Shown here: positions 40,610 to 40,969 of the stretch, piece by piece | Position numbering within the stretch: the first letter of the stretch is position 1 | How the letters are laid out: every line of letters starts with the position of its first letter | Sequence record: OZ035744.1 | DNA: 64,000 nt | Direction: 5' to 3' (one strand) | Source of the DNA: Felixounavirus LF110P1 | Program-made: the position numbers and the translations under genes | The notes under the pieces: generated by a model | What the model was told of the DNA's origin: nothing | The model's input: only the letters and a program-made list of their open reading frames with translations | Databases searched by the model: none

Positions 40610-40800
40610 CTTTTTCATTTTAGAATTGTGCAGGTAGAGTTCTGTAGAGAAATCTGTAGAGAGAATTTTGAACTCCAAAGAGAAAATTCATTTTCAAACT
40701 GTGCAGGTAATCTCCAAAGAGCTTTTTCATTTTCAAAACGTGCAGACCCCGCTCAGGTCGGGCAAGAAAAATCATTTTAGAATTGTGCAGGTAGGTTTTT
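40610..40800. repeat. four direct repeats of about 23 nt (TCATTTT[AG/CA]AA[TT/CT/AC]GTGCAGGTA)
   Basis: copies at about 40614, 40688, 40727 and 40772, followed by a C/T-rich tract; track ORFs here are low-complexity and probably spurious. Confidence 0.6.
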
Positions 40801-40969
40801 ATAGACAGCCAGCCCAACACCTCTCCCCCTCTTACTCCCCCTCTCCCAAAAAGTCAAGAGAAAAATTTGTAGCGGATTGAAAAATAATTCTTGATTTGCG
40901 TTCTGTTTTGTGGTAGTCGTGCGCACCCGTTTCATTACAGTTTTGCCAAAAATATTTTTAAAATTTTTA

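Follow-up and report, generated by a model that had tools for sequence, protein, structure and literature searches.

A conserved direct-repeat array and adjoining polypyrimidine tract at the border of the terminal small-gene array of Felixounavirus and related phages

We analysed a 64,000-nucleotide stretch of a Felixounavirus genome (subfamily Ounavirinae), hereafter the window, and identified four direct repeats followed by a polypyrimidine tract, which together are almost certainly a functional control site in the DNA, present throughout the four genera examined. The element is real, unique and selectively conserved, and it is neither coding nor a structured RNA. Tentatively, and with slightly less than an even chance of being right, we read it as a cluster of double-stranded DNA binding sites that separates the long upstream transcription unit from the small genes of the terminal array, as a boundary or a point of control. 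That a protein binds the array, that this protein is of phage origin and that the complex has such a role is our inference.

Introduction

The phages related to Felix O1, like Felix O1 itself, are classics of phage diagnostics and today serve in therapy and biocontrol. According to the Felix O1 genome paper, temporal control of transcription in this phage is not understood; the repeats listed there are only those of at least 24 bp, all at other positions, and no description of the array reported here was found in the literature searched. Direct-repeat sites clustered in a control region are a familiar arrangement in phages, of which this well-conserved array is a new member. As the 430-bp spacer that holds it is unique, non-coding and strongly conserved and lies just where the core genome meets the terminal array, it would offer a mutable handle on transcription timing, replication start or DNA entry, and for phage engineering it represents a site to spare or to exploit.

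Results

Genomic setting of the repeat region

The repeat region is 99.6% identical to that of Escherichia phage ekra, and 287-288 phage records match it. It occupies an untranslated spacer of about 430 bp, flanked on one side by the terminator of a macro-domain gene and on the other by the sigma-70 promoter that comes first in an array of about 15 small genes. The gene upstream (39756-40541) encodes a TARG1/OARD1-like macro-domain protein, a member of an ADP-ribose-removing family, with the domain spanning residues 5-168. The features of the region are as follows.

40571-40617, plus strand: intrinsic terminator of the macro-domain gene (hairpin at 40571-40612, then a T-run)
40599-40637, plus strand: repeat unit 1, core TCATTTTAGAATTGTGCAGGTAG at 40615-40637, flank ggtaaggagggctttt
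40672-40710, plus strand: repeat unit 2, core TCATTTTCAAACTGTGCAGGTAA at 40688-40710, flank actccaaagagaaaat
40711-40749, plus strand: repeat unit 3, core TCATTTTCAAAACGTGCAGACCC at 40727-40749, flank tctccaaagagctttt
40756-40794, plus strand: repeat unit 4, core TCATTTTAGAATTGTGCAGGTAG at 40772-40794, flank ggtcgggcaagaaaaa
40818-40847, unstranded: polypyrimidine/polypurine tract with a mirror repeat, a sequence type able to form H-DNA
40848-40897, unstranded: conserved non-coding block AAAAAGTCAAGAGAAAAATTTGTAGCGGATTGAAAAATAATTCTTGATTT, unique in the window
40944-40998, plus strand: UP-like element and first sigma-70 promoter (TTGACT at 40970-40975, 17-nt spacer, TAATAT at 40993-40998)
41009-41250, plus strand: 5'-UTR hairpin (41009-41029), RBS block GGAGATTCAAAAATG and first small gene (41062-41250)
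47154-47744, unstranded: direct terminal repeat (DTR) of about 580 bp, marking the physical genome ends, from two end-oriented records

The terminator has a stem of 17 pairs followed by TTTCATTTT, and its 3' arm and T-run also serve as the upstream flank of repeat unit 1. Its Felix O1 homologue, t13, tops the terminator table of that phage in listed stability, at 21.8 kcal/mol (PMC3185647). In Mooglevirus the 5' arm differs with pairing retained, and the 3' arm is 75% invariant.

On the other side of the spacer, the first promoter carries a promoter annotation in phage ASO1A. The UP-like element corresponds to 80% AT at 40930-40970, the sole stretch with at least 75% AT, and no separate unwinding element was evident. 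A promoter scan returned this known promoter only, with no promoter ahead of the repeats on either strand. The TAGAAT in copies 1 and 4 was considered as a -10 element and rejected, having no -35 partner and lacking conservation both in Kolesnikvirus and in copies 2 and 3. The conserved block at 40848-40897 holds a degenerate fifth repeat (about 40879-40898) and a minus-strand -35-like TTGACT; the leftward candidate TTGACT-17-TAAGAG reads into the tract and has a poor -10 here, a better one being present in the Salmonella-type variant only.

The small-gene array (41062-46674) comprises about 15 genes with their own sigma-70 promoters and fills the last ~7 kb before the terminal repeat. Its proteins have no Pfam match, and its first gene varies between phages while the spacer upstream of it is conserved. 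Most of the small genes (window 41040-46680) share a near-identical RBS block, AAC(T/A)GGAGATTC(A/T)AAAATG, and promoter and hairpin cassettes recur among them, for instance an identical 19-mer at 41050 and 41534.

The genome ends were placed from two independent PhageTerm-oriented records. Pr103Blw has an annotated 581-bp DTR that maps to window 47154-47744, and in vB_EcoM_E9 the first 580 nt equal the last 580 nt, with the same mapping. In UAB_Phi87 a 608-bp DTR was demonstrated by Bal31 mapping (PMC4837284), although the GenBank record of that phage was opened inside the tRNA cluster and is uninformative on the ends; PMC8303462 and PMC11737134 are further sources for the terminal repeat. 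With the DTR at 47154-47744, the small-gene array, whose genes are probably early genes, makes up the right-terminal ~7 kb, and the repeats mark its inner border, 6.95-7.13 kb from the right physical end (47744), a distance of about 8% of the ~88-kb genome. The repeats themselves were rejected as a terminal repeat or packaging site, since in both end-oriented records the 580-bp DTR lies 6.4 kb away.

Copies and anatomy of the repeat units

A motif scan of the 64-kb window located four exact plus-strand copies of TCATTTTNNAANNGTGCAG, at 40615-40633, 40688-40706, 40727-40745 and 40772-40790 (start-to-start distances of 73, 39 and 45 nt), copies 1 and 4 sharing the same 23 nt, TCATTTTAGAATTGTGCAGGTAG. 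Allowing up to two mismatches yields five matches in the window, against a mean of 0.38 in dinucleotide shuffles, none of 100 of which reached five; the fifth match (position 20018, minus strand, 2 mismatches) is unrelated to the array. The four repeats that an earlier, sequence-only reading of this DNA had described near 40610-40860 are therefore real. The genome-wide search which it had proposed, run on the window together with 24.5 kb of phage ekra from outside it, finds the repeat motif at this locus only.

The same reading had taken the element to be about 23 nt long. This length holds for the core and falls short of the whole unit: in an alignment of 58 units from 15 genomes, conserved positions, including a purine block, reach about 16 nt further upstream of each core. 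The full unit is about 38 bp long and consists of the purine block and a run of five A or five T, followed by TCATTTT, six further bases and GTGCAGGTA, with the consensus TCyRRARRG-(A5 or T5)-TCATTTY-NNAWNN-GTGCA-GGTA. The CATTT and GTGCA positions are invariant in all 58 units, an invariance that is partly built in, as the units were gathered with the motif pattern itself. At one position of the unit A5 and T5 are interchangeable (27 versus 30 units), which fits recognition of double-stranded DNA shape and not of RNA or codons. All units point the same way and are asymmetric, with no dyad symmetry of the kind found in an XRE/Cro-type operator.

The polypyrimidine mirror tract

The polypyrimidine tract that had been noted 3' of the repeats is present at 40818-40847 (CACCTCTCCCCCTCTTACTCCCCCTCTCCC) and, with 20 C, is the most C-rich 30-mer in the 64 kb. 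Within it, positions 40820-40846 form a perfect 27-nt mirror repeat, CCTCTCCCCCTC-TTA-CTCCCCCTCTCC (12+3+12), all pyrimidine except for the central A and with a G-rich complementary strand. A mirror-symmetric pure polypyrimidine run is the sequence requirement for an intramolecular triplex (H-DNA), and the homopurine/homopyrimidine mirror symmetry characteristic of such sequences is found at 40820-40846.

A C-rich tract occurs in the corresponding place in Suspvirus, Mooglevirus and Kolesnikvirus. The Suspvirus tract is a perfect mirror (14+3+14) and that of Mooglevirus a 12/14 mirror with C4 instead of C5 in both arms; these paired C4 arms hint that the symmetry itself is maintained. The resemblance to H-DNA mirror repeats is limited by two observations: the C-rich run of Kolesnikvirus is shorter and shows no clear mirror symmetry, and a G-rich, non-mirror segment takes the place of the tract in 14 of 44 loci, about a third of the relatives and mostly Salmonella-type Felixounaviruses. 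As tract and replacement are both found among close relatives, recombination happens at this spot. The replacing segment, GGTGGGTG(T/C)AGGTGGGG...CTACCACATCTG (L010 1446-1500 and 13 other loci), is G-rich on the plus strand and contains a better leftward minus-strand promoter, TTGACT-17-TG-n-TAGCCT.

Three public assemblies break within the tract at 40820-40846 (MN850610, locus L003, and loci L077 and L151). The Andreotti record begins inside the tract, two IMG/VR contigs stop at ...CTCTTACTCC, and in one IMG/VR contig the tract end is followed by the Nextera adapter CTGTCTCTTATACACATCT. These breaks most likely reflect polymerase, sequencing or PCR dropout at a structure-prone sequence and not a physical end, and they give an indirect hint of the predicted triplex.

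Conservation across Ounavirinae

Four (rarely three) same-strand copies are found in Felixounavirus, Suspvirus, Mooglevirus and Kolesnikvirus, so that absence of the repeats from relatives, the outcome which the sequence-only reading had named as telling against it, was not observed. Spacing is fixed per lineage: Felixounavirus and Suspvirus share 73/39/45, Mooglevirus has 75/41/45 and Kolesnikvirus 37/37/39. Three-copy arrays exist in a few genomes, and repeat unit 2 is absent or substituted in some relatives. Among Erwinia phages, 28 records contain the repeats, and of the spacer blastn aligns only window 40687-40789 (repeats 2-4) in these phages. Across the four genera the macro proteins are 44-63% identical, the Erwinia phages having 44% over the macro domain.

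Ten orthologous sequences from 3 genera were aligned, and the proportion of invariant columns was as follows.

Block 40848-40897: 82%
Repeat cores: 75%
Spacers between repeats: 53% (Fisher p=0.004 versus cores)
UP-like element and promoter: 52%
Macro gene 3' end: 36%
5' UTR: 29%

Concerted evolution via gene conversion among the copies could mimic part of this conservation signal. The unit end differs by lineage, being GTGCA-TAGR in all four Kolesnikvirus copies and GTGCA-GGTA in the other genera.

Coding capacity, RNA structure and related sequences elsewhere

The ORFs overlapping the repeats had been dismissed as probably not genes, and we agree: variable sites fall at codon positions 1/2/3 in the numbers 15/21/18 for the ORF at 40620-40820 (minus strand), 8/11/11 for that at 40628-40780 (plus strand) and 22/25/18 for that at 40668-40880 (plus strand), with no third-position excess. 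Shifts in spacing by amounts not divisible by three (spacings of 37, 41, 74 and 75 nt) break the three frames in other genera, and no ORF is kept across genera.

RNAalifold recovered the terminator hairpin only on the plus strand and nothing conserved on the minus strand (covariation -0.08 and +0.43, respectively), and the spacer had no Rfam match even at E<=10. A blastn search of 5,426 E. coli genomes with the repeat region returned nothing similar, and a host-derived origin was thus discarded. A search for two copies of the pattern in 185,579 bacterial and archaeal genomes detected no enterobacterial array and no related locus; it yielded five unrelated loci, among them a 21-nt satellite, (AGTCATTTCACAGTCGTGCAG)n, in a Caldilineaceae MAG (L141 3410-3763) and a short intergenic repeat pair in a Ruminococcus MAG (L139 6825-6890), both containing the CATTT...GTGCA pattern. 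We judge the likeness of these two to the phage repeats to be due to chance. Among other phage groups, two-copy matches outside Ounavirinae were coding tandem repeats in tail-fibre-like genes and were set aside, and a single-copy motif scan of other phages was swamped by chance matches.

Candidate binding partners

The XRE-like protein encoded at 4018-4347 (minus strand), which the sequence-only reading had put forward as a candidate regulator, has an HTH_3 domain by Pfam and is the only recognisable helix-turn-helix protein in the window. tblastn detects it in 258 records from Felixounavirus, Suspvirus and Mooglevirus and in none from Erwinia phages (Kolesnikvirus), although Kolesnikvirus keeps four repeats. 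Regulator and sites thus do not co-occur in relatives, and the protein is a poor candidate for a common ligand. Compared with Pfam, the 20 neighbouring proteins gave a Macro-domain match and nothing else, and thus no DNA-binding domain. The C-terminal ~95 residues of the macro-domain protein, which do not align with the Kolesnikvirus orthologue, were considered as a candidate binder and have no sequence match in Pfam or the PDB.

Among host proteins, DnaA was considered. The Kolesnikvirus repeats read on the minus strand as CTATGCACA or TTATGCACG, each a DnaA box (TTWTNCACA) with one mismatch, and four such boxes lie 37-39 bp apart in phiEa21-4 (L007 1502-1640) and in Coenus (L133); a decayed fifth copy, TCATTTTCAGCCTTGTAAGCA, stands 3' of the C-rich tract in Kolesnikvirus. 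The best match to the box is 8/9 positions, unpaired, in Kolesnikvirus and 6/9 in Felix-type phages, and with Felix-type sites at 6/9 only DnaA is unlikely as the shared ligand. Inspection by eye for sites of other host factors (Fis, IHF, MarA-type box, CRP, EcoKI site, KOPS, ops) gave no convincing match. The supplement of the Bas63 knockout screen (PhageMaP) gives intergenic scores for T7 alone. The change between GGTA and TAGR is coordinated in all copies of an array, as expected if a ligand co-evolves with its sites, and this pattern suggests a phage-encoded binding partner.

Discussion

A proposed binding-site array with a control or boundary role

The repeats had been proposed to be operator or iteron sites for a regulator acting at the first promoter of the array. 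What holds of this proposal is that they behave like protein-recognition sites, since they are unique, conserved in number, order and orientation, and conserved above the spacers and the flanking coding sequence. The role as promoter operator finds no support. The sites neither overlap nor closely flank the promoter: the four of them lie 181-355 bp upstream of the -35, counting 181 bp from the end of core 4, and the tract ends about 120 bp from the promoter, so that the repeats and tract do precede the promoter, as had been stated, with a gap that "just before" does not convey. Counted by hand, about 194-198 bp separate repeat 4 from the -35 in Felixounavirus, Suspvirus and Mooglevirus, against 223 bp in Kolesnikvirus; differing between genera, this distance is not phase-conserved. 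The repeat motif is found at no other promoter of the small-gene array, which leaves control of the whole array unexplained. These distances, together with the phages having three copies, also count against the control reading that we favour.

In that reading, the four ~38-bp same-strand units would be double-stranded DNA sites for one sequence-specific protein, probably phage-encoded and asymmetric, acting as a monomer or a head-to-tail oligomer. Cooperative filling of the four sites would build a nucleoprotein complex between two transcriptional domains, with the terminator on one side closing the long replication, metabolism and lysis transcription unit and the first sigma-70 promoter on the other. 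Such a complex would serve as the boundary or control element of the terminal array, either by shutting off or modulating its first promoter or by keeping transcription or replication from crossing from one domain into the other. The mirror-repeat tract would be its structure-prone, supercoil-sensitive neighbour.

A partial parallel is offered by the P2 C repressor, whose half-sites O1 and O2 are same-orientation repeats that flank or overlap the promoter they control. Both systems have asymmetric repeats in a single orientation and a small phage DNA-binding protein (putative in our case), but the sites described here are 181-355 bp upstream and the phage is virulent.

A possible replication origin

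The iteron half of the proposal amounts to a replication origin in which the repeats bind an initiator, while tract, A/T-rich stretch and promoter aid unwinding and transcriptional activation as at lambda ori; we regard this as unlikely, though likelier than the other alternatives. In lambda ori, four iterons are followed by a strand-asymmetric A/T-rich segment. Like the iteron clusters of lambda and plasmids, the element consists of several direct repeats of about 20 bp (three to five in those clusters, three or four here), confined to one intergenic locus per genome and followed by a purine/pyrimidine-asymmetric segment and a strong promoter. The array is kept throughout the subfamily, and the one-mismatch DnaA boxes of Kolesnikvirus point the same way, a likeness which falls to 6/9 in Felix-type phages. 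The four copies match the several ~17-22 bp direct repeats expected of iterons, but the array is wide, outside any gene and irregular (37-75 bp), without the regular close packing of classical iterons. The sole A/T-rich stretch (40930-40970) is the UP-like element of the promoter. There is no 10-11-bp AA/TT periodicity that would indicate bent DNA, 36% of genome windows scoring equal or higher, and the GC skew has no inflection at 40.7 kb, which turns near 11 kb and 47 kb. Nor is an initiator gene apparent: none is annotated in relatives, which is weak evidence, and the neighbouring proteins have no Pfam DNA-binding domain. The Felix O1-type replisome is T7-like, with primase/helicase, PolA-type polymerase, 5'-3' exonuclease and ligase (PMC3185647).

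Possible relics of duplicated terminators

It is rather improbable that the repeats have no function of their own and are duplicated terminator tails, relics of lost gene cassettes that recombination has made uniform and that persist only as patches of homology through which modules are exchanged. Units 1 and 3 begin with GAGGGC/AGAGC followed by TTTTTCATTT, a tail identical to that of Felix O1 terminators t5 and t13; the two versions of the segment just 3' of repeat 4 among close relatives attest to recombination, and three-copy variants exist. Neutral relics would decay, however, whereas the cores exceed both the promoter and the adjacent coding sequence in conservation, and order, number, orientation and lineage spacing persist over four genera whose macro proteins have diverged to 44-63% identity.

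A possible site governing DNA entry

The position of the array recalls the injection stop signal of T5, a cis site in a large untranslated repeat region that bounds the first 7.9% of the genome transferred and surpasses the neighbouring ORFs in conservation (Davison, bioRxiv 10.1101/866236). We consider it very unlikely that array and tract are the Ounavirinae counterpart of this signal, a stop or tether site at which entry of the right-terminal ~8% would pause, or the DNA be anchored, while the terminal genes are expressed. Were it so, a host-takeover programme would run before the remaining DNA enters or becomes accessible, and staged genome delivery would extend from T5-like siphoviruses to a contractile-tailed phage family. 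Repeat Region 3 of T5, in its left terminal repeat, and the present array are alike in being cis regions that are rich in repeats, are not translated and border on the inside a terminal ~8% with small genes, early in T5 and probably early here, where about 15 have their own promoters, and the higher conservation of the site than of neighbouring coding sequence is seen in both. The T5 region, on the other hand, measures 1.2 kb, lies inside a 10-kb terminal repeat and is made of inverted repeats, palindromes and paired DnaA boxes; here only direct repeats occur, four in number, and the terminal repeat, of 580 bp, is 6.4 kb away. The agreement at 8% may be fortuitous, and no report of two-step DNA transfer for Ounavirinae was found in the literature searched.

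A possible element acting as RNA

The antitoxins of type III toxin-antitoxin systems are tandem 34-45-nt repeats, which the unit lengths of 37-45 nt resemble, and the plus-strand RNA of the tract would be C-rich and G-poor like Rho utilisation sites. An RNA-level element, either a decoy repeat RNA of the ToxI type or a Rho-loading site backing the terminator, is nevertheless highly improbable, as a strong terminator and not a promoter stands directly upstream of the repeats, no promoter precedes them on either strand, the spacers vary, A5 and T5 are interchangeable, neither structure covariation nor an Rfam match at E<=10 was found, the 185,579-genome search gave no related bacterial array beside a toxin gene, and the tract gives way to a G-rich segment in a third of relatives.

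Additional observations

More than 1 kb of non-coding DNA surrounds the DTR (window 46730-47800) and is dense in short repeats (CTTGTTAA/G, CTGTTAAG, CTTAAAAG and TATAAAG), with a purine tract at 47421-47450; this stretch probably holds the terminase recognition and cutting signals. Further along the window (58000-63585, plus strand), ARAGORN predicts 26 tRNA genes, of which Rfam reports 24. Finally, the record GU169904.1, deposited as "Staphylococcus phage SA1" (147 kb), contains a sequence 91% identical to the repeat region of these enterobacterial phages, which suggests a chimeric or mislabelled deposit.
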